Positions 7,623 through 61,589 of a stretch of DNA of 64,000 bases are shown here, piece by piece. The notes under the pieces are model-generated. The model was not told where the DNA came from and did no database searches. It worked only from the letters and a program-made list of their open reading frames with translations. The stretch comes from Lytechinus pictus (lineage: Eukaryota): contig NC_087250.1 in the NCBI RefSeq assembly GCF_037042905.1, positions 15,378,001 to 15,442,000 on the forward strand. The letters run 5' to 3'. Each line of letters begins with the position of its first letter. The first letter of the stretch is position 1. The translations under genes were made by a program, and so were the position numbers.

Positions 7623-7660
<38 letters not shown>

Positions 7661-8810: not shown

Positions 8811-10053
8811 ATTGAGTGAGAATTTCGGTCTCTTTAACTGGTGAGTGGAGCCAACTTAGTTCAGCGGAACAACCAAACAGAGACCGAAGCTTTTGGTCTA
8901 TCTTGTCCGGACAAATGAAAGGCGGTAATTATTAGCCTTGAGGACTCCATGATGATGTTTTTAAATATATACAACAAACTTTGTTTCCCATGGCAATGAG
9001 GAAAATATGAAAATATTTCATTATTCATTTTTTTAAATAATAAAATACAAAAGAAATAGTGAGTTGATGACGTCATCAGTCCGCTCATTTGCATAACGGC
9101 CAGGATGTGTACCATGTACAGACCTGAGATGATGAGGATTCTGTACACTATAAAATAGTATGGTAGTGGATCGTATTACCAAACACTTCATGAATTCAAT
9201 CTATCAAACACATTATTCTCATGAAATTCACCAAACTTTCACCATAAATACGCAGTTACCTACAAAATATAAATATGTAAAAATTTTGCCGAAATTGGTT
9301 TTCGTTTTAACGATATTCGCTTCCAATTGGACCTCTCTTCGCATGTGAAATATTTTGGTCACTTGAAAAAGGTACCAGTATTTACCGAAAGTGTGTTTTC
9401 TATGGGAAAATTTGAGAAAACAACAAAATCATTAATGAGCTATTTTGACCATATTTTACTATTTTTAGAATATGAAGACTTTGAAAATGTGTTTTTGACC
9501 ATTTTTCATCATCTTTCTATTCAAGTTCTCTTTGGAAGGATGTTGCAAAATTTTGAGCGTATGAAATTATTTTCTGACGCGTATGATGCGCACGTTCGGT
9601 AATACAAGGCCGGTCGGTAATACAATCATACTTGACAGATAAGTTTGTCAAACCTCCAGTTGTGTGTTCTTTTTTTTGTTTTTTTTGGTTAAAAACTACA
9701 TGTAATATATCACCAAATACCCATAAGGATGAACTTCCCCTTTAAGGTGTGTACTGTGAAGCTATTCTGGAAGCCACTTATTAAACACTCAATCAGTGCC
9801 GGAAAGAGAAAGAGGAAGAGTTTCAGTCAAGTTTCAGCAATTAAAGTTTGGCAGGAACTAACCCTAAAACTGCAGCAGAGAGATGTGTACTTTCAAAATG
9901 TGTTAATTGGCAAAATAAGTGGTTCTTTAATGTTAATACTTTTCCAAGAAATTGTTTACCTCCTACACTGTAGTACAGGGATACAGACTTGGACACAGTG
10001 TACACTTTACCATCTTGCCTTGACTTCTGGTTTGGCTGTTGATACAACATTAA

Positions 10054-10693
10054 AAGGGATGCTCCGGGCTGAAAATATTTTATCAAATAAATACTGTAAA
10101 ATTCACAAAGCAAAATGCCGAAAATTTCATCAAAATCTGATAACAAAAAGTGAAGTTGATATGGAATTATAAAGTTTAGCAAGATATTGTGAAAACAGTT
10201 ACATGCACATCATCATGAATATTCATTAGATTTAGATGGACTGATAAAAGGTGCACATCCCCACTTTCCTTTTTCTTACATGTATGTTATTACATATATA
10301 TGTAAAAATGAAATCATAATTTTTTTTTATACATGTTTGAATGATGTCTCCCTAGTAATGAAATGAGTTGCAGCTACAATGTATGAATCTAATGCATCAA
10401 TAATCAGTTATTCCAATATTCTTGGTTCTTGAAGGAACAAATAAAACCTACTGTACATGTACATGTAATTTCATATCATAAAATACAAAAGAACAAGTGG
10501 GGATATGGCATCAGTTGCTCATTGAATATTCATGAAGACATGCCTAGAACTGCTTCACCGGAATCATGCAAATCTTTAAAATGCCATAACTTTGTTATTC
10601 CTTCTCCAATTTTGATAAAATTTTCATTGTTTTGTTTGTCAGGTTTTTCTTGATCTGTTCAAATCATATCAGCCTGGAGTACAATGTACCCCT
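10054..10693. mobile_element. TTAA-flanked Kolobok-like MITE
   Basis: TTAA|AAGGGATGCTCCGGGCTGA ... TCAGCCTGGAGTA(CAATGTA)CCCCT|TTAA; shares the internal AAATTTCATCAAAATC motif with family A. Confidence 0.7.
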
Positions 10694-11308
10694 TTAACAG
10701 TGTTTTGAATGGGGATTTTCCTCTTTCAAGCATTTTGGGGCGAAATTGCCATGAGCCTCCGTGTGATTTTCCCCTGATGTTCGCAATTTTGTTATCAGTC
10801 ACCTTCCTCATAAATTTGATGAGACATACTTTGTTGTTTTTATAGGGTTTTCTTTTTTTGCTCCCCCTTCTGTTTATTGTCAGTGTATCAGTGTAGTGAG
10901 GGTGACAAGCGATTTCAGATCATTTCACCCCTAAATGACAGCCCAAATTGCCCCTAAAATCCCCCATACATGATTTGGGGCGACTATTCTTTCCCCAAGA
11001 TCTGTCATCATCAATATTCAAGATTATTTAGAAAATCAATATTCTATTTCCAGCTACTGTACATGCATGGCAGAATAATGATATGTGCCACTGCATAATT
11101 GCATTTTACTTCTATTGTAGCCCTTATTTTCTGCAAGCACTCCAATGTGTAAAAAAAATAACCCCTGAAAAGGCTGAAATGAAAATTATTTCCTACACGT
11201 ATCCTGCAGTGTACGTCTTACAATCCTTTTTAGTTTTTTTAGAATGTTCATAATTTTGTTTATCAAAACTTGACTTTTCTCCTGTTGTTTTTATTTTCAT
11301 ATATGCAG

Positions 11309-11410
11309 GGTAGAATGGGTGGAGATAATAGAACCCAAAACACAGCGGCCCATGTACGGCAATCTCAGGACGGGAGAGCTGGCATGGGAACCACCCTCAA
11401 GCGCAAAAGT
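11309..11410 (+). CDS. ARHGAP39: ARHGAP39/Vilse-like, coding exon 2 (first WW domain)
   Basis: Pyrimidine-rich tract and TGCAG acceptor, GTAAGT donor; 102 nt, phase 2-2. Encodes VEWVEIIEPKTQRPMYGNLRTGELAWEPPSSAK, matching the ARHGAP39 N-terminal EWVEIIEP...MY.NL.TGE..W.PP motif. Confidence 0.93.
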
Positions 11411-12259
11411 GTAAGTTTGTTTTTGTTGAATTGTTTTGATTTTAATACGAAGTTCCACGGTGAAGGCATGGCTCGATATTAGCAGTGGCCCGAGGCAACC
11501 AATACTGAGAGTCGGGCCACCAAAATTCTGTAAAAACCCAGTAGTGGTGCGGCCGGGCTGCCAAAGTTTTGATATAAATTGTTTTGTTTTTTGTTGTCTT
11601 TAGGCCACCAAGAATATTAAGTCGATGATTTTGGTGGACCGATCGGGCCACCAAGAAACAGGGGTGTGAGAGTTCAGATTTTTATCTGATTTCAGATTTT
11701 TTTGTTTTGATTTTCAGCTTAATTTCAGCTTATTTTTTGCCTTCCTCTGTCCAAAAAGTATGGGAGCTCTTTCTATTTCAGACTTTTTCAACACTCTTCA
11801 GCTTTTTTCAGATCTTTTTATGTGTGACCACTCACACCTCTGAAGAAAACAAGTTTAGTGTGGAGTCCTATGGGGGGGGGGGTAGTGGAGGAAATGGAAT
11901 GGGGAGAATGAGGAGAGGAGACTGAATGTAGAAAGTGTGTTTAATACTAGCAGGAAAGGGACTGAGAGGGGATGAGGAAGGATGGAGCAGGGATGAAAAG
12001 AAGGGAGTGAAACAGAGAGAGAGAGAGGGAGAGTGAGGTTGGGGAGGGGTGTATTCCCTGGTAGCATGTACACATGTGTAGGAGGCTGCTACATGTATTT
12101 TAATGTACCGGTATTCAGGGCTGTAAATAGATGTTGTCATTCATGGATGCGAAGGAGAGTTTTTTACATTCTGTACTGATGTTGGAATCACACTTCTTGA
12201 TCGGCCTACCCCAAATCGGATGGAGTCTTTTTTTGTGTGATGGCAACGCGATGTTTCCA

Positions 12260-12790
12260 TACTGCACACGTACATGTACATGTACACACCTACATGTACA
12301 TACAGGTACATGTATGGTGTAATGCACATACATGTACATGTAAGTTTTGTTATATGCCTACAGTATTCATGTACACGTGTACATGTACAATGACTGCAAA
12401 TAATGAAAGGGAGACAGATTTTTAGGCCTGTACACTGTACATACAGTACATGTATTTTGCACAATCCCTGCATACACTGTACACTGCAGTGCCAGTATAC
12501 TAGTCTGTATACTGTACTGCTTGTGCAGTTTCTGTGTACATGTATGTACATTGTACATGTGTTTGTGAAAATGATATTTGCAGATTTCTGTTCTGTTATT
12601 TTGCTTTCATACATGTACATGTACATGTACATGTAGATTGTCACCTTCTTCCATATTATGCCTGCATACATGTACATGTAGCCTACCTTGACATGTACAT
12701 GTACAAGTACTTGTACAGTACTTTTTACTTTAACATACATGTACATGTAGGCCTACACATATGTACAGGTGTACTGTATACTGCAAAGTT
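12260..12790. repeat. Low-complexity tract rich in (TACATG)n / TACAGTA / TACTGTA
   Basis: Directly visible; it produces the spurious MYMYMY/HVHVHV ORFs. Confidence 0.9.
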
Positions 12791-13185
12791 AATTTCCAAA
12801 TAGGCCTATACAGTGGGCTAGTACTATTCAGTACACCCTTCAGAGTTCAGTATGAATACATTCATTTTTCTGTAGGATAGGAAGTTGCTATTTATACCGT
12901 GATTGATACTGTACAATACTTCCACACACAATGACATTCCTAAGTGAGTTCATACAGGGACTGTTCAAGGCCATTGTATTTTATCCCAGGTCATTGTTTA
13001 TCATGTTTGTTTTCATATTTTGTTCCTCTCACAGAGTTTAGGTGAACAGTGTTTGTTTGCTTGAATTCAATGTCTCTGTAGAGATAAGATTGTCATAATT
13101 TGAACTTTTGAAAGTTCAGTGCACGTCCAATGACCCTACAGTGTATGGAAAGTTTAATGTACAATATATACAGAATTTACCACCC

Positions 13186-13374
13186 CTGGGGGCCGTTTCA
13201 TAAAGCTGTTCGTAAGTTAAGAGTGACTTTAAGAATGACTGGTGAACCTTGTGCTAAACCATCGCCTACATGTATGGTGTACATGTACATGTATACCATT
13301 TACCAAAAGAAAGGATCACCAGTCGTTCTTAAAGTCGCTCAAGATTACGAACAGCTTTATGAAACACCCACCAG
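13186..13374. mobile_element. ~175-bp palindromic MITE family (copies also at ~25555-25732, 56177-56355, 58063-58240, partial 61384-61549)
   Basis: GGCCGTTTCATAAAGCTGTTCGTAAGTTAAGAG...CTTACGAACAGCTTTATGAAAC; near-identical hairpin arms across the copies. Confidence 0.9.
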
Positions 13375-13658
13375 GCTTTTATTCAGGACTTTGGTCTTTA
13401 ATTGCCATCAGCTTGATATGAAAATGATGCATTACAATTTTAACACTTCAAGACTTCAAGTATTCAACAGCAATGAAGTTCAGGCACTGATAGGGCAGGC
13501 CTACAACAGGCTAGTCTGCAGGCACAGACCCTGATTGAAACTTTGATCAACAAGTGTGTCTCCACGGAGTCCACGCAAAGACTAGCACATTATACAAATC
13601 TTGCTGTTTTAATTCAGGAGAGATCCTTCAGTACACAAGGCATGAGTAGGCTGCAATT

Positions 13659-14394
13659 CTCGCTACCCCAAATAGGAACAATAATCTCATATTGCGCGAG
13701 ACGAGATAATTTTCACTCCGTCGGGTCGTCATCACCACTTCCGGTTCAGAGTCATACTCGCGCGAGGTTCGCGATACTGAGTTTTCCACCACGCTGAAAT
13801 CGATGCCAATCAGCGTAATATGTACAGATTATAATACTTTTTATTTAATTTGGTCAGTTTTGATTCCATTTGAATTATGAATAAAAAAAAATATATATTT
13901 CACGTGAAAATAATTTTTATTCATGTTTTTATTATTAGGTTATAAAAAATTAAACAAAAAATGAATATATTAAAATTTTGCATTTAGCGACATGCCTGAC
14001 ATCACGATCGTATTCGACTAGACGCTAAATATATACAGCATTCATTTCATTCAATTTTTCGTCGACCACAAAATGGATAAAAAATCAGTTTCGGAACTTA
14101 AAAAAAATCTTAACTGACAGAGGAATACCGTGCAATGGAAAGCGTCGGGCAGAATTAGTAACTTCAGCAGAAAAGGCCGTTAAACTGTATCGTGAAAGAG
14201 AGGGTTGTGATCACAAACTTTCATCGAAAGCGACGTTGTGTTGTTGTGCATGACGGCACTGTTGATCTGAATGGCAAAACAGTGCATTGGACTTCCGAAC
14301 AGGAAGTTGTAATACCTAAAAGCTATCCCATAATGCAATGCGCGTTACAGGGATTTTCCCGGATCTCGGCGAAATCGCTATTTGGGGTAGCGAG
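13659..14394. mobile_element. Non-autonomous DNA transposon, Sola1-like
   Basis: Perfect 17-bp TIR CTCGCTACCCCAAATAG and AATT duplicated on both sides. A homologous empty site GGCTGCGTATTCAGACC occurs at ~61951. Confidence 0.8.
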
Positions 14395-15205
14395 AATTCA
14401 GACCCTTTTCTCGAGTGAAGGGTTTACACAGCAGACTAACAACAGGCCTGCATATAATGTACATGTATGGGCCCTACAGAGAGAGGAAATTACACAGGAG
14501 GGCAACGGGTGATTTTGCCCTCATGATGACTTCCCAAATTGCCCATAAAATTCCCCTACAAAAAGGCAACAAGACATGCTTTGGGGGACAATGCTACATG
14601 TATTTAATACAATGTAGAGTCGCCCCAAGATCTGTCTGTGTCACAAACACTGGTATTCAAGATTATTAAAAAAATAAATATTCTAACTACATGTACACTT
14701 CTTCTTTACTACATGTACATGTATGGCAGAATAATGCTTGTTGCAACAAAAGAAGCAGCCCTTAAAATGACAGAAATACATGTAGCCCCCAAAACTCCGC
14801 AATTGCACCAATGTGGAAAAATAGCCCTAAAAATTAAAAAAAATTACCCTGCAATTTTTAAAGAGTTTCAGAAAAAAAGTCGGCCTAATACCTATTAAAG
14901 TAATGTAGGCATGATGTAAAATTGCAAAGCCAAAAACTGGCACTAGAGACAGTCTGCCCTTCTGTGCATTGGAAAGGAATGAGTGTTTTTCCTGTGCTAA
15001 GGGTGTGATCATGAAGCAACAAGGAAATGAATTCTTGGCATTCTTGAGACATTTGAGCTTCTCAATGAGCTTCTGTTTACAGTTGATACATACTGTATTA
15101 AATAGGCCTCCATATACAGGAAAGAATTAATTTTGTGCAGTGTGAATGCCAAAATCACAGAAACCATTATTAAAACCCAGGCAGTGAAGGCCTACCCTAT
15201 GCACT

Positions 15206-15556
15206 GGGTTTATTTTCATTTGGTCCAATGCCAATTCGTCCAATTGCCAACTTGTCTAGTATCATTTGGTCTACCATCAGTTCGTCCAATATCCACATGG
15301 TCTAATTGCCATTTCGTCCACTCAGTAATTGGGCAAAATGATTGAAAAAAATTACCCTGAATATTAGACCAACTGGTTATGAGATGAAATGGTCATAAAC
15401 GTACTGGTAATTAGACAAAGTGATGATTGGACCAAATGGTTGTTTGACGAAATCTTGATGGACGAAATGGCAGTAGACTATAAAAATGATGGTACAATGA
15501 ATGTAGACCATGTAGTGAGTGGACGAGTTGGCAGTGGACGAATTGGTAATTTACCA
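15206..15556. mobile_element. Degenerate MITE with short internal GACCA/GACGA repeats in opposite orientation on each arm
   Basis: Left arm CCAATTCGTCCAATTGCCAACT mirrors right arm AGTTGGCAGTGGACGAATTGG. Confidence 0.6.
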
Positions 15557-16722
15557 TGCACTGTACACTATTTGGTACAATCATGGATGCTACATATATG
15601 TACTGTACTATCTTTGGTGCAATGTATGTACATTGAAACTGTGTGCATGGAATCTTATTTCAAAACAAAGACTTTGTAATACACTGTTGGCCATCATGTA
15701 CATCATACATGTATCCATGTACATGTACATACAGTACAGTAGTACAATTAAAACCGTGTGCATACATGTAGAATCTTTATAAAGAGAAATGCCAGATCCC
15801 AAAATGAATTCGCACTGAATCCAATGAAAAAACACCTTTTAGTGTTTGTGTATAAAAAAAAGTTATGCCTACAGTATGCCAAATGGCTCTCGAAGAAAAT
15901 GTGTAGCCTACATGTACATGTAATTGCTGAGAAATGAGCAAAATAAGCACTGAATTCCATCAAATGTCAGGTATTTCCAAGCAATATTCCCATATACGCT
16001 TTTCTGTGTTAGTGATCAGTGTTGTCAGTTTTCACCTGAGATTTCATGATTTCACATTTTTTTTATAGATACAATATGTCTACCAGATCTACATGTACAT
16101 ACACGTACATATGTACATGTACATGTAGGTCTACATGTACTTGTGTATACTACAGTGTAACAGTGATTTTAAAGACTTGAAATAATTGTTTGCTGAAACT
16201 GCATTTTACATGTAGTTAAAAAAAAAAATGGAAAAGCATTGTAGATGTAGAACAGTTTCATTACATGTACATTGTAGAACTAGAATCAAAACTGAAGTTA
16301 AAGTCAATCTAACACAATGACCAGGCTGAAAACACTGTTGCGTTAGTCACACAAAAATAATAAATTAGCGCACCGGCACTCAGTCTCGCTTCGCCCGTCA
16401 TATATCGCCCTGAGGGTAATCTGCAATTAAGACGCATTGGACTCGCTCACTGGAGCGACAAGGTGATGTCGATGTCAGCGTGAAAATTGTCAACTTCATT
16501 GATATGTAATGACGAATGCATCATCCTTTGTTCGCCTAGTCTCTTCTGTTTAACTTTTAATCCTGCATTTTGATTTTTTTAATTATAAAGCTCGAGTGAA
16601 GTATGCATTGTGACTTTATTTCTGCTTTTTAATATTTGTTTACAAATTATACAATGCACGGAATAGGGCCTTCATACAGAGAGCATGCAAGAGGTATTAA
16701 AATATCTCCTTTTTTTTACTAG

Positions 16723-17544
16723 GGGTGCGTTTATCCGCCACTTTTTTACCCTAGAATCATGATCTGAATCATGATTCAAATCATGATTCTGCAGAATCAC
16801 GATTGCGTTTAGTCGAAATTGAATATAATCATGATTAGAATCACAAACATGAAACACGAAAAAAGGGGCATTTGGAAAGACGTTTCTGCAGAATCACGTA
16901 CGAAAATGTTCGAATAAACGATATCGTGATTACAATCATGATTCTATGACCTCACTGTTGTGTCGGGCTACTTTCGGTTTGACTCTTGCCAAGCTCAAGG
17001 CGCTCTATATGCGCATTGTATGTACATGATAATGTACTACGCATGCATTTCTTGTCATGTTCAAGTTCTGTGTTGGTCATCGCATCGTCCACTACTTTTC
17101 ATTTTTTGGTCACGTCTTCAACTTCAAGTTCTAGTAAATGAATTAACTGGACAGACAATGATCTCAGTTGTTGTTGAGTATACAGTATCAATATTAAATT
17201 GGATCTACGCTAAAATTCACTTCCGAACACCATTTTGGATAAACTACATGTAACAAGATGAATAGAAGCATATGGACCCTACATGATAGAAATAAACAAA
17301 ATGAGGTATAGACTGAATTCTGGAAGCAAAAGATTTTTCGAGAGCCAAAACGCAATAACGTGTGAAAAACTTCCTCTGTCAAACTGCGCACTAGTGATGC
17401 GCACTGGATTGGCCTGAATTTGAGGAGAAACAGCATTGGAATGAAAGTCGTCTAAACGCTGATTCTGTGATATTGTGATTCATGTTTGTGTTTTGAATCA
17501 TGATTCAAATCATGATTCTGGCTTGAGGTCGCATAAACGCAGCC
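16723..17544. mobile_element. PIF/Harbinger-like MITE
   Basis: TAG|GGGTGCGTTTAT ... ATAAACGCAGCC|TAG, with subterminal AATCATGATT repeats at both ends. Confidence 0.75.
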
Positions 17545-19641
17545 TAGATCTCATTGAATGGCCAGGGATCAGAGAGAGAGAGTGAGTGAGAGAGAAAGAC
17601 AGCGCAAGAAGCGGCAGGGAGCAAGGGAAAAAAATCACAGATACTATTGGCAATTTCACCCCGGAAATACCCCAAAGTGCCAGCAGATATGACAATACAA
17701 TGTATGTACATGTAGCTCCCGAAAAAAAAAAAAGGAAAAGAAATGACTGGTGGGGGGGGGGGGGGGGGGGGGGCGTTGAAGGATCATGAGAGAAGTTGAC
17801 ATCAATTGGTTTATGTACTTTTTTTTTTTTTTTTTTTGTGTGTGTTCAGTCTCCATCCCCTAAAGAAAAAAGCTACAGTGCTATAAACTAACTGTACTAG
17901 TGTACACTGTTCTACAACTGTATATTATAGTAATAAGACAAAGCGCAAACATTTGAATGAAGGACAAAAAGGTAGAGGACCAGGAGATTATCACCTTTGC
18001 AACGCAACAGGGCTTGTGAGAGGATTTTATGTTTAAATATAATCATGCAGAGCTACAATTTTATATGCCCCCTACATGTACATTGTATAAATTACAGACC
18101 TACAATGTACTGTACAGTACATGTAGGCCAATAACATGAATGTTTTGTAGAATGAAATGGGCAATTCCATAGGTTGGTGGACATGAGCTCAATGTGTCTT
18201 TGTACTGTATAGCAAATCTGAACCATAACGTGAGTAACCACTTTATCTGCACCCCTAGTAAAAACCATGTGTTCTTTATTTTTTGAATTATATACAAATT
18301 TGTCTCCCTAATATACTTCTTTGAAATGGATATAATCAACTTTCATAAAACACTTGTATGAGGACACTTTTCACTTACATGTATGTCCACTTTTCATTTT
18401 ATGCATGTCCAAATCATGTATTTTATGAGTAACCGACACATTTCAAAGATTTGCCAGGAGCACAATAAAATTTCCCAAGTTTTGTTTTTATACAAAGGAT
18501 AGTCAGACTGCGTACTTTGTTGTGATAAAGAGATGTTTAGTTCACTATCAATAATAATGGAGTTACAGCTCCAAGTATGAGTCAGGGTGTCTCCAAATGT
18601 AACGTGGGTAACTGTGGAATAGCCCAAATGTACATTTACAACAGAAGGGTTGCCTGAATCAAGTTATGGAGTGTAGGTACATGTACATAGTTTTCAATCT
18701 GACATGATAGCATCTCGACCTGTACTGTAAACCCTACTGCACAATGTATAATCTGGGGAGATTAGAGTATAATGGCCGGACCCCTTGTGAATCTTTATGT
18801 GATGTGTCTTCACCAGCTCTCACTTTAATATGAAGCCAAGTTCTTTGGCTGAATAACAGACTCAGCCAGGCCTGTAGGCTGTATTCTTGAAAGAGGTTTC
18901 AGTTGTACCATTGCCCAAAACCATGGAGTACATACATGTACATGTACACTTTATTCAGATTTTTGTAGATAAATTACAATTGTTTCATTGCATACTCTAA
19001 CAAAAATCCAGTCTACTACAAATTGGTGCTTACTCCAGTGGATTAATTACAATTTTACAAACAAACAGTAAAAATATGGCACTACCCTTTACAGGAAAAT
19101 GCAATGCTGCCATACTTGTTTCATATTCAAGCAAGAAAATGTAGAAATAGCCAAAATAGGGCCAATGAAAGCAAGGCTCCATTAGCGATTCATGCCACGT
19201 TTCTCACCACTCCCTTTTTCCCTGTGTCGCCTCTGCGGCCAGTAGAGAGCTTGGATATTATTCCAAGACATAGCCCATTGCAATAATTAGCCTAGAATCC
19301 ATTTTGATGTCCCTTCCAATCTCTTCATCCATCTTTCTTTTTCTCCCTCTGTCTACTCATTTTTCTTTTCTCTCCCTCTTTTCAATTGATCTCTTTCTTT
19401 TTAATATTCTCACTCTCAGACTTTGTCAATGATACCTTTCAATCTCTCTATTTATTCATCATTTAATCTCTGTCTAGAGCACAATTTTTGCTTTCCCTAT
19501 TTCATTTCAAATTTTTCATTACTCTCTCAATCTCTTTTTTAAAAATGAAGATCTCAAGATTTTCCCTCTTTGTGTATCAATCTTGACTAATTTACAAACA
19601 CTGTGTATCATGATTGACAAGTCACAAATATTTTACAAATC

Positions 19642-19755
19642 AAGGGGCTTTCACAATTGCTCGTACGATCGTTTGCGATCATTTGGTCACAACATATGTT
19701 GCACAGACTCGCGACGGTTGTAAGCAGTCGCACTACCAATTGTGAAAGGGGCTTT
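19642..19755. mobile_element. Short palindromic MITE-like element
   Basis: AAGGGGCTTTCACAATTG ... CAATTGTGAAAGGGGCTT. Confidence 0.55.
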
Positions 19756-20062
19756 AAAGTTTGATCATCCAAAGAGTTCCTCCCATCATACATTGCCTGT
19801 ACAGTATTACAAATCAAAACATAAACCACTATTCAGAATGGAATCTCAGCTCTAGACTTTCTTTCTGCAATTTTTATTCATCAAAGCTGGTATAAAAAGC
19901 CATAAACCCTTTGTTCTGTATGAATAGGAATACAGTCATATACCAGTAGGGTGTACAGTGGGCCTATTTATTTGAGCTGATTATCTGAGGGTTTTTTTTC
20001 TGAGAGATAAAGGGGATTATAATGCCCTACATTCAGTGACATGACATTTGCTCCAGTCTTAG

Positions 20063-20465
20063 AAGGCGGTGCTGCACCATCCTGAGTTTGCTCAATCTCG
20101 AGATTTTAGCCCGATCGGCCCTCTTCGCGATTAACTTCGAGATTCAAGAAACCCCGTCTCCACCATCGCAAGAAGAGCGATTCCTGCTCGAGCGAGGCAT
20201 CGATGCATGATGGTCTAACGCCGTGAATAAATAATCCTGAGTGCGTCTGCACCGACAAATTAGCGCGATAATTCGTAAAATAGCGCGCTATTTTGCAAAT
20301 AATCCCAAGTTGACTTGGGATTGCAATCTCGAGATTAATCCTGCGAACTAGCGCGATAATTGCGTCTCCATTGCAAATAATCTCGAGATTGTTCAGATCG
20401 GGATAATTTGCCGGATCAGAAATAGCGCGCTAATTTGAAAACTTGGGATGGTGCAGACGGCCCTT
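20063..20465. mobile_element. Harbinger-like MITE nested in an older element; partial inverted copy at ~32232-32450
   Basis: CTGCACCATCCTGAGTTT ... AAACTTGGGATGGTGCAG. The flanks (ACATGACATTTGCTCC, and GGAGCAATTGTCGCCGGAGC..ATGTCATAGAACC) match the element at ~54196-54410. Confidence 0.7.
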
Positions 20466-20677
20466 ATGTTTCAGAGGGCATTGGGATAGAGTAAGGATTG
20501 TGTTATAGAGTTTTTGATTCAGAAATCATTGAAGATAGGATTAGGGTTTATTTTAGTTTTGGAGATGAGATTTTATGTTTGGCTTTTAATCGGAGCAATT
20601 GTCGCCGGAGCACATGTCATAGAACCGTTTCCAGACCGCATCGTATCCTGTTGCCCATGTGTACATTTGCCACACTA

Positions 20678-38347: not shown

Positions 38348-38683
<336 letters not shown>

Positions 38684-46931: not shown

Positions 46932-47093
46932 AGGGGAGGTGTTTGAAGAAAGGACTTGTCGGACGTAATAATCCGAAAGTCCTGTTTTATCCGACAGTTA
47001 CCATAGTAACAGTGCTTGTCAGCCAATCAAAATCCAGGAAAGATGTCAGATCTGACAACTTGTCGGACGAAAATGTTGATGAAACGCTCCCCA
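46932..47093. mobile_element. ~160-bp MITE; second copy at ~63819-63978
   Basis: GGGAGG..TT..AAGAAAGGACTTG ... GATGAAA(C/T)GCTCCCCAG in both copies. Confidence 0.75.
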
Positions 47094-49987: not shown

Positions 49988-52900
49988 TTAACTTCACTGT
50001 ACAATCCTATGGGAACTCCTTTTTGTCCCCCTATTTCTTTTATCATAGCAAAATCATTCCTATTTTCAAATCATATGGAGATTATGAGCTGGGAGATCTG
50101 CGTCCAGGTTATGGGGGGGAAATAGTGTTTATATTTTAGGGGCTATTTTTTTTGTCCACCTTTGTTGATTTTTTTTTGCTTCTCCTTTCATTTCAATGGC
50201 TACTTTTTTGGCTGTATAATAAGGGCATCATGACATGAAGTGATCGGTCATGGGGCTGATGTAGTCGATTGATTGCTTTGATCATTGTATATGATCGATC
50301 GTAAAATTAGCCCAAGATCAATCGCCTATAAAAGTTTTATGTTTAACAGGACCCAGGTACAGTTACATGTAGATCTGGGGTGGTCAAAATTTCTTGATCT
50401 CAACGGGAAAGTGGGTAGGAGTGTGGAAAACGTGAGAAAGAGAATGACTTGATTATATGTGTTGAATTGTAGGTTGGGACTAGTCTGTACATGTAGGTCC
50501 AGGCTCTGATTGAATCTGTGATCAACAGGTGGGTATTCACACAAGACTAGCACATGTAACACTTGCTGTACACAAATAACTGTAGGCTACACATTCGATC
50601 AGACCCCTTATTAAACTTGAGTGAAGGGTTTGCACATCAGACTTGGATGGGACACCCTTGCTGGAATAAGATGGAGACTACAAAAGAGGGAGCCCTATTT
50701 TCCATCGTCTGGCTCCTAACAATTGATCTGTCTGACGTACCTAAAGAGGGGGCTATCATATTTACCCCCGAAGTAGGCAATGTAGATCTTCTTACAATCA
50801 TTCAGATGTTCGAAGCCTTCTTTCCAATAGCCTCGCAGTCACATGTACACTGGATTGTGAGGCCCCTTTGTCAGACTTCAAGCTCTACTTACAGTACGCT
50901 TGATGACATAGTCAGGGACTACACAATAACTTTCGGAGGTAGAAGTACATGTTCTGTTCTGTATCCAGTCAGGGCCTTTGTTCATCCTGATGGAGCTAAC
51001 ACTGTAGTGATGATTCATGGGAACTCTCTCTTGCCTCAAAATTTACCTGTAAATGGTGTATTTATTAGATGGCAATGACCCCCCCCCCCCGGGCTCTCCA
51101 TCATCCTCCCTCATTTCTTCTCCAATGTCCCATGTATTTGATTTTGTCTGGGTTTGGATGTATTCAATTCTGTCTTGGGAAGCACTTCACACACAAAAAT
51201 AGTCTGTGATTGTCACAGATTTGTTATAAGCTACTGGAAATCCTTGCATCTGATTGGCTGGGAACAGATTTAGTCAATGAAAATCAGGGACAAAACTTTT
51301 CGTGAAACACCTCCTCGAACACCCCAGTCTCTACTATCATGCAGCTCTGCGAAATATTCAGTAGGCTACTGCAGTCAGTAGAGCAAGGCACAAATCTGGA
51401 AGACCATATCTGCAGAAAACTTCTTACATAATGTACAAGTTGTACTTACCGTACAATGTACCTTCTGTTCAGAAACTCTTGCAGGACTGGTCCGTAATAT
51501 TCAATAAAGTTTCATTGTAATCTCGCCTGGATGTATCTTTTTTAATAGTGAATGCTACTCAGTGGATCATCAAAATTACTATACACATTTGTATTGTTGG
51601 AGAGTGGATGTTTTTCATCATTTTTTGAGACAGTATTTGACAGCAGAGAACTGAAGGAGTGTATGTTTATGTGTTCTTCTGGATATAAAATCTTTCTGGG
51701 ATTGTCCATTGCATTTGTCCATAGGTTTTCTTTTCAGTGATCCAGATTCTTTTTGTCACAGTTGAGCAAGTTTTATTAATGAATTTAATTTTCATTAATA
51801 AAATATAACTAAAATTGACTGTCTTCATTTTCAAATCATAAAGAATGAATTTCCTGTCATTCCGACTACAAACTCATCAACAATCATCTCTAATCTGTTC
51901 TAAGTTCCACTCCTAAAAGAGTGAACATTTTCATTAACTTTATTTGCAAAATTATTCAAAAAGTGAAAATTACTACTCATTTTGTTTAATGAGAAATATA
52001 TGAATATAATTTGTAGTCAGATATTTTAACCAGGAAGTCTTATTTCCAGAATGTACCAAGCTCAGATGTGTTTGTGCTTAAGTGTATTTCCTACTGTAAA
52101 CATTTCAATGGCATTTGATATAAGGTATTCCACTTAAAACGGACTTGAGAATCGGATATGACATGTCATATTGATGACAGTTTATAGAAGGTTTTCTCAA
52201 ACATTCTTGATACATTAATTCAAGTATGGTATTATGATATCAAAGATGATGGGTGTTTAAGGAATACTTGAATAAAAGCTCTTGAATATTTTCTTTTACT
52301 ATAAGAAAAGGACAGGACGTACCTATCATCCTCTTGCTCCTTGGTATGTATTTTATACATGCAATAGCATTGATTAGTGTATACATGGTCAATTATAACA
52401 AAATTAGCCCCTCAACCAATTGCTGTTGCTGTACGTTACATGGCATATACATGTATGTACATGTAAATCAGACAATTGAAGGGGCACTGGCGTAAATCCA
52501 AGCGTTGAACCTTTTGTTCAGGGGAAATGAGCTATTCTTTCATTTCGCCCCACTTCGAATAGTACATGTATGACATATCCTGATGACATCACAGATTTAC
52601 GCCAATGGAAGGGGAATTCTCTGAGACCTTGTTCAGGGAAAAGTCTGATTGGTTGACTTGCCCAGAAAATGTACTTTTTCCAATCATATGTGGGCCCAGT
52701 ACTTGTGAAATTTGCGCCATTCTGATCGATCTTCTCGCGATCAGATTTCAAAAGAATCTTTTTACCAAAGGGGGAAACAAAAACAAGCATCATATCCTGT
52801 TTTCTCTTAATTAATTTTCCCTTTTGAAATTGTTACAACTCAATACTTATTAGGGGCAATTATATTCATACATACACTCAAGGACTATTCACTATTGTTG

Positions 52901-53124
52901 ATATTGTCAACATTCTCATATCTTTAAAAGGAAACATTTGAAGGTCATGGGCTAAAAACAGATGAAATTACAGTATATAATATATATCTATCAAGTGTTT
53001 GTATTTCGCCTACATGTTAAAGTATCGAGTTCCAGTACATATAAGCCTAAAAAACTGTATGTAATGATCACTTGTTGATTGCAGCGTGCTGGCAGGGACA
53101 CTGTTATATTTCACATGAAATTAT

Positions 53125-53687
53125 TTTGTAATCTTGGAACATATAAGTTTGTGATCTTGGAACATATAAGTTTGTGATCTTGGAACATATAAGTTTGTGA
53201 TCTTGGAACATATAAGTTTGTGATCTTGGAACATATAAGTTTGTGATCTTGGAACATATAAGTTTGTGATCTTGGAACATATAAGTTTCTGATCTTGGAA
53301 CATATATAAGTTTGTGATCTTGGAACATATAAGTTTGTGATCTTGGAACATATATAAGTTTCTGATCTTGGAACATATAAGTTTGTGATCTTGGAACATA
53401 TAAGTCTCTTAATCTTGGAACATATAAGTTTGTGATCTTGGAAGTTGGAACATATAAGTTTGTGATCTTGGAACATATATATAAGTTTGTGATCTTGGAA
53501 CATATAAGTTTGTGATCTTGGAACATATAAATTTGTGATCTTGGAAAATACATGTACATGTAAATCTTGGAACATATAAGTTTTTTTTATCTGGAATGTT
53601 TTTTTATCTTGGAATATATATAAGTTTGTGATCTTGGAACATTAAAGTTTGTGATTTCGGAACATATAAGTTTGTGGTCTTGGAACA
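53125..53687 (+). repeat. 23-bp minisatellite (ATCTTGGAACATATAAGTTTGTG)n, roughly two dozen copies
   Basis: Period 23 (53131, 53154, ...), with no unique spacers. Confidence 0.95.
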
Positions 53688-56508
53688 AATGCAATGCCTA
53701 TCTCTGGCTGCTTCAGACGCATTGCACATGTAGGTACATGTATACAGTGTACCCGGTATGATTAGATTTGATTAGATTGAGGAGATTTCTTCAACGTAAG
53801 CGGAAAATGTGATCGATCGCGGAATGAGGTCATGTTTACAATTGCTCATTCACAACAAGTATTGGCGATTCCTAGTTCTACTTTTACCTTGCGTTCAAAG
53901 AAGTTTTTTCTTGATTTTCTTATAAACAAAGGCCTTTCTTTATTCCTATGTACATGTATCTTGGCTGCCCGCTGCCAAACAGGCTTCAATCAATAGGAGT
54001 GTGATTTGATTTTCATGATTTTCTTCTCTATTTTTTTGCAATTCAAATTTTGGAGCTTGAAAAATATTATTTCCCATGTTGGCCATGAAATATAGAATGT
54101 GAATCCTTTTTTTTGGTTCTCTGTATCGCTGAAATAAACCCTACTGTAGTGTAGTGTCCAGTGTATTTTGACCCACCATGGTATGGTCGATATGGTGACA
54201 CGACATATCCTCCTGCGACAATTGCTCCGGTCTTTATATCTCAGAAGGCATAGGGTTAGACTATAAAAGATTGTAGTAGAGCTTGTGGTTCAGAATGATG
54301 TAAAGATTAGGATTAGGGTTTATTTAGTTTTGGGGGTTATGTTTTATGTTTCGCTTAATGTGCAGATTTTCCATTAGAGCAGTTGTCGCCAGGGCGAATG
54401 TCAAGGAACCGGTCGGTACATTTACCCACAGTATGTCCATGATTTACCCGACTACCTGTGCCATATGATGTACAGTGTATCTATTTTCTCAAGTACTTGA
54501 CAAGGTAAATCAAGGATTCCTAAATTGGAACATCCAAATCAGATAGAGAGGGGGAGTATTCCATGAAGAGTTTTGACATTGATTTCACTGACTAAATCTG
54601 CTCTCAGCGGATCAGATGCAGGGATTTCAGTAGCTTATAACATCTGTTAAGTGCAAATCACTGACAGCCCTCTTCATGAAACTGTCCCCAGGTTGAAGTG
54701 GAGAAAGTCACCTAGCAGTTATAGAGCGAGGGGAGCATTTCATGGAGAGTTTATCCAGTGAATAATCTGCTCTAAGCCAGTTAGATGCAAGGATTTCAGT
54801 AGCTTATAACATCTATAGGTGCAAGTCACTCTTCATGAAAGGCTCCCTGTGTTGAAGTGGAGAAAGTCACTTAATCTGTTATGAGTCACAAGAATACTTG
54901 TCATGGAGGTAGTCAAGAGAAGCGATCCTCCCGCCTTTTCTCTGAAAGTTGCCAAAGATACAATCAAATGAAGATGTTGATATGCCCTTGCTGCCACTCA
55001 ATTCTGATGCTTGTCAGAACTTTGAGATGCAATCACTGGTGTGTTCACACTCCAACCATTTTGGGCTATGCTGTAGAATAGGCGTTTTTTAAAAGGATTT
55101 CACGTTTTGTACTCCTTTTCATACCAATAGGCCCTTCCTTTATATGCACTGCCAAATTAGCTTCAACTTTCACCTGATTTGTAGTGTAAATAATCCCTTG
55201 TAAAGATACGCATGACTTTATAAATGACTGAAATATCTAGTGCCAAAATGTGAACCCAAATGTTCATGACATTTTAAATAGTATTACAAATTTGTTTAAT
55301 TTGTAAAGAAAAAAAAAACAAATATCATATGCCCTGGAAAAAATGTATAACAATGAAAATGTTGTTCATCACCTGCATATATTCCAACTATAGCTTTTTA
55401 ATAGAAGGCAATTGAGAGACATATTCTAGCTTTGCTATATTCCACTTGTTTGCAAAAAGTTTGTTTGATCATTTATTTCACATTCACATAAAAATAGGTC
55501 ATTACAATATGGATACAATTATATACAAATGGATACAAATAAAAAAAATTCATCTAAAGAAATAACAGTGTCATTACAAATCCTTTCACATACAAAATTT
55601 AGCAGTTGGAAATGAAAAAAAGGAAAACTCAAATAAGGCCAAGTGGCCCTTATACGCAATACAATGAAGTATTAAGTTACAGGTACTGGAAAACATAAAA
55701 CATTGAAAAAAATAAAGAAAATATAACAAGCTATGAAAGTATACAAACAAGTTTCAGAAAGCAGCCGGGATCTGATGGTCAATCCAACATGAAATGGAAA
55801 TTTACTCAAAATTAACCCTAAATTCATTCTTTTTAATTTAATTCCTTTATGAGTGGACCTTTTCACCATTTAATATTCAGAGCTTGCACTCTCATGCTCT
55901 TGGCCTATATAGGTATTGTTCACTGTGAATGCAACAGATTAATGGCTATTTTTAAATGGAAAATGTCCTTGTCAAAAATTGGCAGCCATGATGGTATTGT
56001 CATGTAGGTTTTACTGTCTGTTGATGAACCCATGAATAAATGAAATCTACTTTTGATCTCTCCTCTTGATAAAAATATTGAGTTATTAATAGGATGTTCG
56101 CACAAGGCCATAACTCTTGCTGCCTGATAGGTAAAACAAGAATTAAAAAACAACTTGTTTCAATGTACATGTATGGCCAGGGGGCCGTTTCATAAAGCTG
56201 CTCGTAAGTTAAGAGCGACTTTAAGAACGACTGGTGAACCTTTCTTACGCGCTAAACCATCGCCAATGGTGTATACCATTTACCAAAAGAAAGGATCACC
56301 AGTCGTTCGTAAAGTCGCTCTTATCCTACGAACAGCTTTATGAAACACCCACCTGGCTTCATATGAAATAAGGCTTTAAAACTGCAAAGAGTAAAAAAAA
56401 TATATAGATACATGTATTTTAAACAGGACGGTGTTCAACAGTTTAACCTGTAATTTAAAAGCAAGGAATGATAGAAATTGAACATTGTTAGACATTTTTG
56501 TTTGTTAA

Positions 56509-57098
56509 AGGTCAAGTCCATCCCAAAAAATTTTGATTTGAATAAATAGAGAAAAATCAAACAAGCATTATGCTGAAAAATTTCATCAAAAACGGATGTA
56601 AAATTAGAAAGTTATGACATTTCACTTATTTTCACAAAACAGTGATATGCACAACTATGTGACATGCAAGTGAGACAGTCGATGATGTCCCTCACCTACT
56701 ATTTCTTTTGTTTTTTATTGTTTTAATTATACAATATTTCATTTTTTACAGATTTGACAATAAGGACCAACTTGATTGAACCATTTAGTTTTAACCAATG
56801 CTAATTGCACATGTTCGGGGAGGAATTAATCATTGTTTCACACGACAACAGGGAGAAAATTGGAATATATCATATTTCACATAATAAAATACAAAAGAAA
56901 TAGTGAGTGATGTCACCAGTCTCCTCATTTGCATACCGACAAGGATGTGAATATAACTGTTTTATGAAATTAAGCGAAACTTTAAAATGTCATAACTTTC
57001 TTATTTTACATCTGATTTTGATGAAATTTTCAGTGTTATGCTGGTTGGATTTTTCTCTTTTTATTCGAATCAACTTTTTTTTGGGGTGGACTTGTCCT
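56509..57098. mobile_element. TTAA-flanked Kolobok-like MITE, family A (inverted relative to 5036-5642)
   Basis: TTAA|AGGTCAAGTCCA ... TGGACTTGTCCT|TTAA. Confidence 0.88.
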
Positions 57099-59023
57099 TT
57101 AAAATTATTAAGATATGTGTTGTTCATGTAGCCAAATCAAAAGAATAACCATAAAGTAGGCCTACATGTATCTTGCATACAATACATGTATATATGCATG
57201 TATAGCATAGTGTGTTTAATTACCTAACGATATTGGCCTATATTTTCAAGCCTGTATTTTTATTGAGAAATTACTCAAAGTCTTCGAGGTGACACAATCT
57301 AATTACCTTGTAATTGAATTAACTCTAGTCTTTACATGGTTCATTCCTCAACCTTGAGAGATCTGTAAAACACACGACAGAACAAACAGGACAGAGTTCT
57401 GCTGCATTTCAGGCAACATCACTTTTCATGGAAATTATTATTCTTTCTCTGGTTGTTGTTGTCGTATTATGACTGTTCTTGATTTAGCTGTCATATTTAA
57501 TAGGCCTACCTCTTTTTTTCTTCAATTTTTCTAATTAGTCTTTTGTCCTTTTCTTTCTTTTCTTCTTGAACATGTTCTTGAACAGTCTAATTTCTCTTTT
57601 CTTTTGTTCTCCCAGTTTTTTTAATTTTTCTCCTTCTGCCATTATTTGTTTTCCTCTTGTTCAAGATGAAAGCAGTTAATACAGCCAATAGTCAATCTCA
57701 TTTGCCTTCCTGATTTTAGAAAATATTTGTAGGTATTAAAGGATGATCACCATCATCCTAGTAAAATAGGTTTGTAACAAATTTACTACCATTAAATAGG
57801 GGCCATGGACTTTTATTATGCTCATTTTAGTTTTATTGAATTCCTTGATGAGGTTTTTAAATTGCTTGTACATGTATACCAGCAAGTAATCAAGAAGAAA
57901 GTGCATGTTTACACCAGTGAGTGATATAATGAGAAGATTTGAGCTGATATGAGGATTGCCAGTTTGTCACACTGCTAAACTGACTCCAAAACAATCATTT
58001 CTCTTCCATTCATACTAGTGTCCTCATCTGTGCAAGTAAATTCCTTTGACCTTCCATTGTGACCTGGGTGCCGTTTCATAAAGCTGTTCGTAAGTTAAGA
58101 GCGACTTTAAGAACGACTGGTGATCCTTTCTTACGTGCAAAACCATTGCTAATGAATATACCATTTGCCATAAGAAAGGATCACCAGTCGTTCTTAAAGT
58201 CGCTCTTAACTTACGAACAGCTTTATGAAACACCCACCAGGGCCCTGTATTCACGTGCAAGTTTCAGTCATAATTTTCAAACAACTTTCAACTCCCTGGT
58301 ATAAGTTTAAGCTTATTGGAATTTGAAACATTTCATGCATGAAGCAAAAATTATTTTAAGTTTGATTTTGAACTCTTGTGTTATCGGGCCCACATCTGTG
58401 GGAGGACAATATCTACTGTACCCTATGCAGCTAATAAAGCAAGGCAAACAGGTCTTTAAAATGATTTGTGATATATTAAAGTTTAATGACAACTCTTATT
58501 GGTCTAAAGTGAGTAAAATTTAAAATTTGAACTGAACATATACGTAGGTCCTTCATACAAATTCACAATATCTCGTGTAGCACTGGGATTAATATTGAGG
58601 AAGTCCTCTAACTTTCATGAATGATGAAAGTTCATAAAAATTACTATTGATTGTAGATTCTTGTGATGCTAGGCCGTGATATTTTCAAATAAAAGGACAA
58701 TATACTTGTACTTTGCAAGGAAGTAATAACTCTCAAATTAAATGCATTCTGAACATACATGTACATGTATTATGATGTAGGATTTGTTCCTTGAATGCAA
58801 TTTGCTGGTACCTCCTTTCTTGGCAATGTTTGTTTTGATCCCACTGTTTTGACAAGATGTTTTTCTTCATCCATGCAAAAGTTATATGTGAGTCAAGGTA
58901 CAAGGTTGAACAGATACCTGGACTGTACTGTACATATATTTGAAGTGGTTGCATTGTGATCTGTACCTTCACTTCTTCAGAGTCAAATTTCTACGTTCAC
59001 ATCTTCGTAGCCGTTGTGGTGTG

Positions 59024-59143
59024 ATGCAATTTTTACGCTCCATATTTGGATTTATAATTGAGCCTTTATTTTGGCTTTGTTCTATGATGTGGTTGATAGA
59101 TATTGTTATGGATCTCCTTTGTTGCCTTGCTAAATTTATTCAG
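59024..59143 (+). CDS. Candidate alternative coding exon B (MQFLRSIFGFIIEPLFWLCSMMWLIDIVMDLLCCLAKFIQ)
   Basis: 40 codons, then CAG|GTATGT; phase 0 is compatible with exon 4. A possible acceptor TTCTTCAG ends at 58980. No homology evidence. Confidence 0.45.
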
Positions 59144-59267
59144 GTATGTATGTAGATATTTTTAGAGAATATTTTTCAAGTTAAGTACTGTAATTTGCTT
59201 CACCTATTGGTATCGGAGATGTGGTGAATGCACACTACAAAAATATTAAAGTTAACTCCACCCTCTT

Positions 59268-59525
59268 ATGGAAGCGTTATGGTGTTGAGGAAGGACATGA
59301 CTTTGTAGCATGTTTCTTTCAGCAAGAAATTTATCCATTGTGCTGCACTCAACCCAGGTAAAGTGAATGGGTACCCGCCAGGATTTATTTCTTGAATGCA
59401 CTGACCGCTGGAATTCAGCTTGAGATATTAAAAAGCGGTGGGGGGGGGGGGGGGTAATAGATATAGTGTGCTTCGGAATAGATTATTTTTAAAAGATCTA
59501 TACAAATGCCTATTACAATTATTAT
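59268..59525 (+). mobile_element. Degenerate SINE-like repeat (fragments also at ~41965-42045 and ~22872-22970)
   Basis: Shared core (GCACT)CAACCCAGGTRA.GTGAATGG in three places. The SINE classification is inference. Confidence 0.5.
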
Positions 59526-60434
59526 CTGTATCATAAAAAATAGAGATGTGTTCATACAACACCTGTTTATAAATAACAAAATTGTGTTATAAATACACTG
59601 ATGGGTGTATTGTTTAAATGTCTTTCTAGTGTATTATTAAGCCCAATGTCAGACTGGTGTTTCAACACTTCTCCAGATGGTAGTTTCCAATATACATGTA
59701 GATAATGGGCTGGTGTTAAGAAATAAGTGTAACACATCTAGTTCTTTTGTAGTGTCTATTTTTTGAGTTTTAGTGTTCAAGATGTGCCTACAGGGAATTG
59801 ATTTACACTGAATTTGTTAGCATTTTTATGGGGCGGGGGGGAGATTTCAACTCTACAGTCCTAATCATTCCTATTCACTGTAGCTGTTATACACAAAATA
59901 CAATTTAGTTGAAGCAGGAATTAGAAATGCAACATTGGCACTCTCGATGCAATACAGTCAAGGGACCTTTTCACGAAAGAAACCTCTTCCGTTCTGATAA
60001 TAAACTGCCCAAATCCTTGCGTTTGATTGGCTCAGAGCAAATTTCTTGGTGAAAATCACAGAAAAGAAGCTTTATGAAACAATCCCTAGGAGAGAGAGAG
60101 AACAGGGGAGTATGTCACAATCAGTGATTTAAAATGACAACTGTTATAAGCTACTGAAAACCTAGAATCTGATTTGCTCAGAGCAAATATGCCAGTGAAT
60201 ATCACCGACAAGAAGCTTCATGAAAGACTCCCCAGGATTTTAGCAATCGGATGAAAACAAACCGCATTATTGTCTCTTTTGGGAGCAATATTAATATTAA
60301 ATTCATCGGATTGAAATATATACTCCAACTGCTGGCTGGAGTATCATCCATCACTCTACTTCTAAATTGATTCATGATATCAGGCAAAATATCTCAGTGT
60401 ATGGGGATACTCACTCTCACCATAAATCAAACGA

Positions 60435-60925
60435 TTGAATTCCCTATGCATCCTATGAAAAAAAGTACAGCCTTCTACCTGCATTAAGGCTGCTGATCTA
60501 TTACTAATTGAATTCCCTATGCATCCTATGAATAGAAATGCAACCTTTCATGCCACGTTGTTCGTCGCTGCCTACACACCTGTAGTAAAGCTGCAAATCT
60601 GTTGAATTAATTCCCTTTTCGTCCTATGAATAAAAAGTGCAGCCTTCTACGCTACATTGTCCGTAGCTGCTTACGCACCTGTAATAATGCTGCAAATCTA
60701 TTATTCAACTTAAATTCCCTATAGATGCATCTTAAAGAAAACAGTTTCCACTGTCTACACTTTACACACAGATAAATGTACCTGCATCCCTACAGGTAAT
60801 AAGGCCACAAATCTACTATTAAAATTGAATTCCTGATGCATCCTATAGAAAAAAGTGCATCCCATACGTGACGTTGTCTATACAGATGCCTGCACGGCTG
60901 TAATAATGCTGCGAATCTATTATTT
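60435..60925 (+). repeat. Old diverged tandem repeat, ~70-115-bp units (about 5)
   Basis: Recurring AATTCCCTATGCATCCTATGAA ... GCTGCAAATCTA. Confidence 0.7.
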
Positions 60926-61589
60926 ACATGAAGGACACGTTTAATAATTCGTGACGTTACACCACCATCTAACCATCTATCAGCCCAGACCGCAGATGCG
61001 TGGCTAAAGGTTGGAGATGGATGGGCAAGGTTTTAAGGAAATTCATTCTGACCTTAAATGTGATATCTCTGCACCTGAGCAACAGACATAAAAAGTTTCA
61101 ATGTATATTCATTTAATTTTCTCAGTCTGGAAGGCCGAATTGCCATTGAATTCAATATTGATGCATTTTATGCAATAATGCACAAGGAATTTCAAACTAC
61201 AATGTCAATTTCAATTCAGATTTCTTTTTTCATTTATCTTCTACTAGTGATACAAACATACGAAATACAGATTTGAAATTAATTTGCATAGATTACGAGA
61301 CAAAAAATGCAATTAGAATGAAACATGTATAGGAAGTGAAGGGAAAACATTCAGTAACATTTGATACTAAAATCATTACAATTCATAAAAAGTTAAGAGC
61401 GACTTTAAGAATGACTGGTGATCCTTTCTTATGCGTTAAATAATCACCAGTGATCATTTAATGATGAATATCATTTACCACAAGAAAGGATCACTAGTCG
61501 TTCTTAAAGTCACTCTTAACTTGCAAACAGCTTTATGAAACGGCCCTCAGTAACTGATGATTCAATGTGGTTTTTTATTCTCTTTTCAG

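Follow-up and report, generated by a model that had tools for sequence, protein, structure and literature searches.

The genome of the sea urchin Lytechinus pictus was examined over a stretch of 64,000 nucleotides (contig NC_087250.1, positions 15,378,001–15,442,000 of the forward strand; hereafter the window) that carries the 5′ half of the gene ARHGAP39 on the plus strand, and we found this stretch to be crowded, from about 9.7 to 59.7 kb, with short words in which a core of a few bases stands between two TA dinucleotides. These words are 5–7-base insertions at TA, and on the evidence of the sequence they are likely to be excision footprints, or scars, left by several TA-targeting transposon families of the Tc1/mariner type. 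A resemblance to such footprints had been proposed in a preliminary description of the same DNA, and it held for both the anchoring at TA and the form of the inserted bases.

Abundance and form of the TA-core-TA words

We compared word counts in positions 9601–61590 with the expectation of an order-2 Markov model and used positions 1–9600 as a comparison stretch. The words had been described as frequent in the introns and scarce in the first 9.6 kb, which is correct, but this first part is not all upstream DNA, the start codon lying at 7227. TACATGTA, which has the core CATG and is the commonest 8-mer of 9601–61590, occurred 118 times versus 4.3 expected and only once in 1–9600. (An order-4 model raised the expectation to 31.7, having partly learnt the word itself.) TACAGTA and TACTGTA together occurred 45 times versus 15.4 expected (22 and 23, respectively), TACAATGTA and TACATTGTA 15 times versus 2.3, TACAGTGTA and TACACTGTA 12 times versus 1.2, and TAGGCCTA 11 times versus 0.46, with none of these words present in 1–9600. 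An unbiased scan of TA-core-TA words with cores of 3–5 bases placed CATG, CAG/CTG, GGCC, CACTG/CAGTG and CAATG/CATTG at the top. When each of the 16 dinucleotides was tested as a direct flank on both sides of CATG, TA was seen 118 times versus 2.7 expected and the next, AT, 10 times versus 2.6; nearly the whole excess of flanked CATG thus lies between two TAs, the arrangement of a Tc1/mariner footprint. A search for an Rfam match returned none.

Units of the eight clearest cores numbered 202 in the window, 201 of them in 9501–61589 and none in the five main coding exons. The notion that such insertions are a major source of intron sequence did not survive these counts. Exact units of 17 cores make up 2.7% of 9.5–61.6 kb, versus 0.23% in simulated sequence. 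Repeats found more than once in the window account for 10,952 bases, or ~21% of the stretch; only in the hottest 551 bases do units reach ~36%, a figure that includes two-base cores and has no null expectation attached. At ~2.5% of the stretch, the scars do not account for intron size.

If each word is two element ends joined together, its length should vary at the joint, and it was indeed at the center that we observed variation, with the edges at background. Words lacking a central base of the core numbered 45 versus 12.2 expected, as opposed to 18 versus 16.1 for the outer core bases, and words with a central insertion (CA-N-TG) numbered 27 versus 2.6, as opposed to 5 versus 3.6 for insertions at the two other positions tested. 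The words are also decaying, as indicated by an excess of ~54 one-substitution variants alongside an excess of 115 exact copies.

Palindromic words could in principle be made by the deamination of CpG in TACGCGTA-like words or by hairpin (P-nucleotide) repair of the flanks, and to this pair of routes we give next to no credence. Unit density does fall as the ratio of observed to expected CpG (CpG o/e) rises (Spearman −0.45 across 64 bins), and TG or CA lies alongside 40 of the 72 isolated TACATGTA words. CpG decay is nevertheless refuted, because the equally likely products of such decay are rare (TATGCATA, 2; TACACATA, 2; TATGTGTA, 0; TACGCGTA, 0; versus 118 for TACATGTA) and because it can neither add length nor yield GGCC. 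In hairpin footprints of the hAT type, the added bases are an inverted copy of the flank. Here, the CATG core is constant over varied flanks, and the remaining 32 of the 72 isolated words lack any adjacent TG or CA that could have templated the core.

Slippage of the self-complementary TACATG repeat might also be invoked as the origin of most units, which we regard as very unlikely. Arrays do reach four units, and 19 of the 42 adjacent unit pairs are CATG–CATG, more than local density predicts. However, 172 of the 203 chains are single units, 22 of the 42 pairs mix cores, and 18 of the 31 multi-unit chains are mixed, with neighboring units sharing a TA. Moreover, units appear where other copies of the same repeat have no TACATG, and the GGCC, CAG and CA-N-TG cores are not copied from a neighbor. 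With single units and mixed pairs predominating, the words do not behave as a (TACATG)n microsatellite, save for the small CATG–CATG excess, and slippage is refuted as the main cause, its contribution being a minor one of about ten units. A separate 23-bp tandem array of ~20 units at 53120–53690 includes several units that gained a single TA or a pair of them, and in one unit a double CATG unit stands at 53549. An absence of enrichment, CpG decay, and slippage alone, each of which the preliminary description had named as an outcome contrary to its proposal, all failed on the counts given here and the alignments given below.

The preliminary description had further proposed that each event creates new TA targets. 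Although the 22 mixed-core neighbors exceed the 10.5 expected under a uniform model, models of local density over 250–1000 bases predict 17.2–21.5 (p 0.12–0.49), which indicates that new TAs are used like any neighboring TA. We also tried and rejected a measure of similarity to the Tc1 target consensus CAYATATRTG (PMC9635669), which was higher at the scar sites (3.8 versus 2.8 of 8), as neighboring scars inflate the score.

Insertions at TA in repeat copies and in a decayed exon copy

Alignments of several repeat families confirmed that the words appear as extra bases at TA when copies are compared. In the palindromic repeat at 13.2 kb, one of five copies carries 18 additional bases, comprising three CATGTA units (one more than had been described) that the other four copies lack, and the loose-end consensus of family copies at 13250, drawn from four public runs, also lacks the first of these units. 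A second family (37690–38255) gained 12, 6, 6 (with a CAGG core), ~5 and 2 bases at TA; a third (36850–37144) gained 6 bases at 36989 and 9 at 36887; and a fourth (36297–36541) gained GGC and CATG units. The gains of 12 bases at 37742 and 6 bases at 36989, in the copies at 37738 and 36985, were as previously reported. Every copy string quoted in that report was recovered, although in four cases slightly displaced, by a few bases, from where it had been placed (the positions being 13276, not 13261, against 56268; 36985 against 44506; 37738 against 33853; 36486 against 62208; and 10677). Two of the comparisons were less clean than had been supposed: units are seen in the element at 36486, but its partner at 62208 carries gaps of its own, and the terminal repeat at 10.68 kb is interrupted, but by 6 rather than 7 bases relative to its other arm, which has itself diverged. 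Among repeat-copy gaps of 5–7 nucleotides, 11 were distinct, of which four parsed automatically as TA-core-TA, two more did so by eye and five did not, the chance of such a parse being 0.1–1.4% per gap.

The direction of change is known at a decayed copy of part of the second WW exon, because the original exon is constrained by its protein. The copy lies in tandem with the exon, ~200 bases downstream, and reproduces the exon's 3′ part and its donor, in which GT has become AT. Over 88 aligned bases it carries insertions of 15, 6 and 3 nucleotides, no deletions and 11 substitutions. The gain of 6 bases is a CATG unit that has since acquired one substitution; two of the insertions lie at TAs of the exon, and the third, of 15 bases, lies where the exon has CA and the copy TA. 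This amounts to three insertion events at 7–8 TAs, versus 11 substitutions in 88 bases. In the multi-copy alignments and the exon copy alike, the change is a net gain of bases at what was ancestrally a single TA, with two of the anchors needing one substitution to be read as TA.

Because units arise in dead DNA and then decay, it is unlikely that they are selected binding sites of a DNA-binding protein, and we assign this explanation a very small probability. In its favor, TACATGTA is reported as an abundant promoter motif in Phytophthora and as a preferred Irx site (PMC3520976), and the edges of the dense zone are fairly sharp. Yet the units arise within repeat copies and within the dead exon copy, avoid the promoter region, have several cores and show decay. 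The Phytophthora motif is the same abundant palindrome but has been interpreted as a conserved site, upstream of genes, for a transcription factor (PMC3520976), whereas the word studied here is intronic, insertional and decaying.

Probable excision footprints and their candidate sources

In the mechanism that we propose, an element would insert at a TA and duplicate it, and its later excision would leave two or three terminal bases on each flank, which end joining would fill in and ligate as CA+TG, GG+CC or CC+GG. Variant joining would drop the central base (CAG, CTG, GGC) or retain one extra (CA-N-TG), and about ten tandem CATG units would come from slippage or from the return of the same family.

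Scars of this form have been described, the published rule for Tc1/mariner being that the element's 'first or last 2-4 nucleotides' remain between TAs (PMC6943129). TACAGTA and TACTGTA are the canonical scars of Sleeping Beauty (10.1101/659086; PMC6943129), made there by the end joining of terminal overhangs and found here in nearly equal numbers (22 and 23). The eight scars listed for Sleeping Beauty do not include TACATGTA, the commonest word here, and its shorter scars (TACATA, TATGTA, TACTA, TAGTA and TACGTA) are not in excess here under the order-2 model. The same 8-mer, taCATGta, with two bases from each end between TAs, is cited as a rare scar of Tc1 in Caenorhabditis elegans (PMC3520976, citing Eide and Anderson 1988), whereas here 52 kb contain 118 exact copies of it, fixed in the genome and interspersed with other cores. 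In a Triticeae beta-amylase intron, several distinct terminal-repeat fragments of Stowaway likewise lie between TAs, and re-insertion beside an existing scar is on record (PMC1925063); that account traces a single site by phylogeny, with the element present, in contrast to ~200 sites here with no element-bearing allele seen. Excision sites compared between Asian and African rice likewise document, across whole genomes, how excision alters sequence, but mostly through deletions and filler DNA, with 8 of 94 excisions reported as clean (PMC4423477), as opposed to the small set of uniform net insertions found here. Among the titles and abstract openings searched in the open-access literature, none concerned TACATGTA scars at high density in any marine invertebrate, sea urchins included. 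The scar type is known and its density here unusual; what the window adds is the rule that length varies at the center, the control provided by the exon copy, and a zone whose edges differ from those of the gene.

Three TA-flanked elements in the window are candidate donor types (Table 1). The CAG-terminated element at 39364–40084, noted previously, is real, with 721 bp and perfect 22-bp terminal repeats; its TA-flanked CAG ends are clear, and it may represent the donor type of the CATG, CAG and CTG cores. Two of its open reading frames were searched and matched no Pfam family. The element at 16720–17546 is a candidate donor type for the GGCC and GGC cores, although its ends also fit a CTAG duplication, and that at 28049–28601 for CCGG, although its ends also fit a TTA duplication. 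This last element lies in the left arm of a small palindromic element (28032–28674) whose right arm has a decayed CATG unit at about the corresponding place. Scans for further copies of two window elements found none.

We also considered that the transposase, or repair, might add end-like bases at TA with no full element ever resident, through abortive integration or the templated patching of sequence from element ends, an alternative that we judge improbable and for which we know of no precedent. It would accommodate ~200 scars alongside roughly three resident TA-flanked candidates in 52 kb, the great uniformity of the scars, and the failure to see a site in all three states (empty, element and scar) among 67 loci from other organisms or in the listed read-alignment rows over 7700–17700. 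Against it, the scars are identical to published products of full excision, and Stowaway has repeatedly inserted and excised at one intron TA (PMC1925063).

Several observations also weigh against excision of resident elements as the source of the words. One is the three-state site just mentioned, of which the 67 loci gave no example, the two candidates from a search of these loci for large collinear gaps both failing to contrast an element with a scar; another is that four public runs aligned to 7700–17700, where repeats dominate, revealed no footprint among the matches listed (12 of 183 indel rows and 15 of 898 joints). The CATG–CATG pairs are in excess of the ~7–10 same-core pairs expected from local density, and TG or CA is indeed adjacent to 40 of the 72 isolated words. 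The CAAG, CACG and CAGG cores, each one substitution from CATG, are possible decay products of it, and these '3+1' cores were put aside as evidence. With regard to donors, the GG- and CC-ended candidates have the second parse of their ends given above, a CAA-ended element that could supply the CAATG and CATTG cores was not found in the window, and a Pfam search of 27 of the 152 window open reading frames gave no matches and hence no transposase among those 27. A CAC-ended family was dropped as a TA-specific donor because its 2-bp duplications differ, being TA in the copy at 36299–36539 and CA in the sister copy at 62015–62258; this family, which ends in CACTG, is presumably CACTA-like. Finally, because excision in rice is mostly messy (only 8 of 94 clean; PMC4423477), the uniform scars here would need unusually precise repair. 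(In one public run, X12, two contigs over 12050–12623 differ by 16 gap letters and one substitution at a depth below 5, from which we conclude nothing.)

The loci from other organisms were found by searching metagenome contigs for a chain of three cores and were thus selected for the chain; in viral contigs, a chain pattern gave 0 and 1 loci. Before cores were counted, the match itself was masked and 14 loci were removed, namely the array locus L042 and 13 others that nearly duplicated another locus or were copies within one family. In the 53 remaining loci, taken together, GGCC led (68 versus 2.0 expected), followed by CATG (29 versus 4.4), with the same chaining. In one repeat family, two of eight covering copies had gained CATG and CCGG units at an inner TA. 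Among the gaps listed for these loci, five of 6 nucleotides were TA-anchored with the core CATG, three of them within the repeat that the query had selected and so not independent. The shift in core spectrum between organisms is consistent with a dependence on the resident families, in loci selected by the pattern. Some of these loci were distinctive in their own right. L042, where 2.6 kb hold 28 TAGGCCTA words, is an extreme, array-like case of the GGCC core. A GC-rich palindromic family (L013, L018, L022, L026, L027, L038, L057 and L065) reads either CAG-TA-GG or CAG-TA-CATG-TA-GG at one site. A CAGGG-ended family of ~1 kb (L006, L010, L015, L016, L029, L031, L043, L055 and L062) has a three-core chain fixed in nine of nine copies, so scars can spread with the element that holds them.

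Distribution of the words along ARHGAP39

The coding start, Met-Ser-Asp-Arg at 7227, agrees with Lytechinus variegatus isoforms (P0122, P0123 and P0127), and the features of the gene and of its repeats are collected in Table 1.

Table 1. Features of the window, with positions counted from its first base.
Feature	Position	Strand	Remarks
Zone dense in TA-core-TA words	9697..59700		last unit at 59693
Hottest patch	12250..12800		27 units in 550 bp, mixed chains, CpG o/e 0.06–0.37
Mixed chain TA-CAATG-TA-CTG-TA-CAG-TA-CATG-TA	18101..18125		four different cores
First coding exon, ARHGAP39	7227..7237	+	11 bases, Met-Ser-Asp-Arg then GT donor; CpG-rich DNA
ARHGAP39 exon, first WW domain	11309..11410	+	
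ARHGAP39 exon, second WW domain	38416..38554	+	46/46 residues identical to Lytechinus, Strongylocentrotus and Diadema proteins
Decayed copy, 3′ part of second WW exon and donor	38682..38792	+	from alignment to exon
Alternative first coding exon	43853..43936	+	matches start of Lytechinus isoform P0121
Alternative first coding exon	59108..59143	+	matches start of Lytechinus isoform P0129
ARHGAP39 exon	61590..61658	+	
ARHGAP39 exon	63195..63373	+	donor read in sequence
TTAA-flanked terminal-repeat element	10050..10697		7 units, one in right end at 10680
Palindromic repeat copy	13183..13378		three extra CATGTA units (one at 13267, two at 13280)
Candidate donor type, TA-flanked, 823 bp	16720..17546		GG...CC ends, high copy number
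Candidate donor type, TA-flanked, 549 bp	28049..28601		CCC...GGG ends
Terminal-repeat element	36297..36541		GGC and CATG units at 36484
Repeat copy	36850..37144	+	+9 at 36887, +6 at 36989; putative HINE of preliminary description
Two repeat copies	37690..38255		+12 at 37742, +6 (CAGG core) at 37905, +6 at 38021
Candidate donor type, TA-flanked, 721 bp	39362..40086		positions include TAs; CAG ends, 22-bp perfect terminal repeats

Upstream, the density of units was 0.14 per kb. Within intron 1 it was 0 over the initial 2.3 kb and 5.5 per kb over the remainder; introns 2 and 3 had 4.7 and 2.8 per kb, respectively, and introns 4–5 had none. The dense zone starts ~2.4 kb inside ARHGAP39, and the rise near 9.6 kb coincides with a drop in CpG o/e from ~0.9 to 0.2–0.55. 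At the other end, beyond the alternative exon at 59.1 kb, only 2 units were found in the 4.9 kb of 59.1–64 kb (0.4 per kb), while CpG o/e stays at ~0.5. The dense zone is therefore not simply the gene body, since it leaves out the initial 2.3 kb of intron 1 and almost the whole of 59.1–64 kb, both of which are in the gene. Strand skews, which we also examined, did not mark the gene edge. Unit density falls past the alternative exon at 59108 but not past the one at 43853.

The spatial pattern, though not the words themselves, might reflect age and nothing else, with scars building up everywhere over time, the empty stretches being young DNA, and neither gene bodies nor methylation being preferred. 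We take this to be a strong contender, if somewhat short of an even chance. The zone pattern is confounded by young versus old DNA: eleven CpG-rich elements inside the zone, chosen by eye, have 0.37 units per kb versus 4.5 elsewhere, the unit-poor 7.7–9.7 kb is entirely high-copy repeat, and 1–4.4 kb is a young tandem triplication. Within the gene, moreover, the correlation of unit density with CpG o/e is weak (−0.25, p 0.075), and many of the chain loci from other organisms have a CpG o/e near 1. On the other side stand a comparison within a single repeat family, which had 0 units at 81 TAs in five copies before 9.5 kb versus 10 at 204 TAs in six copies after it (p 0.035, with 7 of these 10 units coming from a single copy), and the sparsity of units in the CpG-depleted 59.1–64 kb, for which age alone does not readily account.

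Other parts of the window also differ in age or CpG content. The triplication (1–4400) comprises three tandem units of ~1.6–1.8 kb with 94–98% identity and an inner 62-bp repeat, and has no scars. A 3-kb CpG-rich block in intron 2 (20000–23000) has none of the eight clearest cores. Beside the hottest patch lies a 927-bp element (13512–14438) with TAGTCTG ends, a perfect 9-bp target duplication, a CpG o/e of ~1.3 and no scars, which we take to be Mutator-like; near 61833 there is a short relative of its ends.

The depletion of CpG suggests that the DNA of the zone is probably methylated. There is a slight indication that scars accumulate in older intron DNA depleted of CpG, with few in recent insertions or close to the promoter, a distribution that targeting, easier excision or mere age may each underlie. 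Methylation is reported to raise excision at least 16-fold for Frog Prince and to raise it for Sleeping Beauty and Minos as well, but the boost is reported absent for Tc1, Himar1 and Hsmar1, with excision lowered in the simple-ended group (PMC3680223). Because the boost is limited to some Tc1/mariner members, methylation-enhanced excision here is only a lead. Insertions of Tc1 in worms are reported to be slightly rarer than expected in active chromatin (PMC9635669).

We tentatively suggest, as a possibility about which we are more doubtful than confident, that TA-targeting transposons cycle through methylated intron chromatin and leave precise 5–7-base scars at a frequency per TA similar to that of point mutations per base. 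This would amount to a domain-restricted, insertion-biased mutation process, in which the scars would map past germline chromatin, with edges near promoters, and the core spectrum would name the active families.

The excision of DNA transposons is normally invisible afterwards, and thus its natural rate and chromatin preference are poorly known. If the words are indeed excision footprints, ~200 scars versus roughly three candidate elements in 52 kb would constitute a direct record of transposition, by family and by chromatin domain, and scar counts would test whether methylation of gene bodies draws elements in or helps them to leave. By the same reasoning, a TACATGTA hit obtained when such genomes are searched for motifs could be a scar rather than a binding site.

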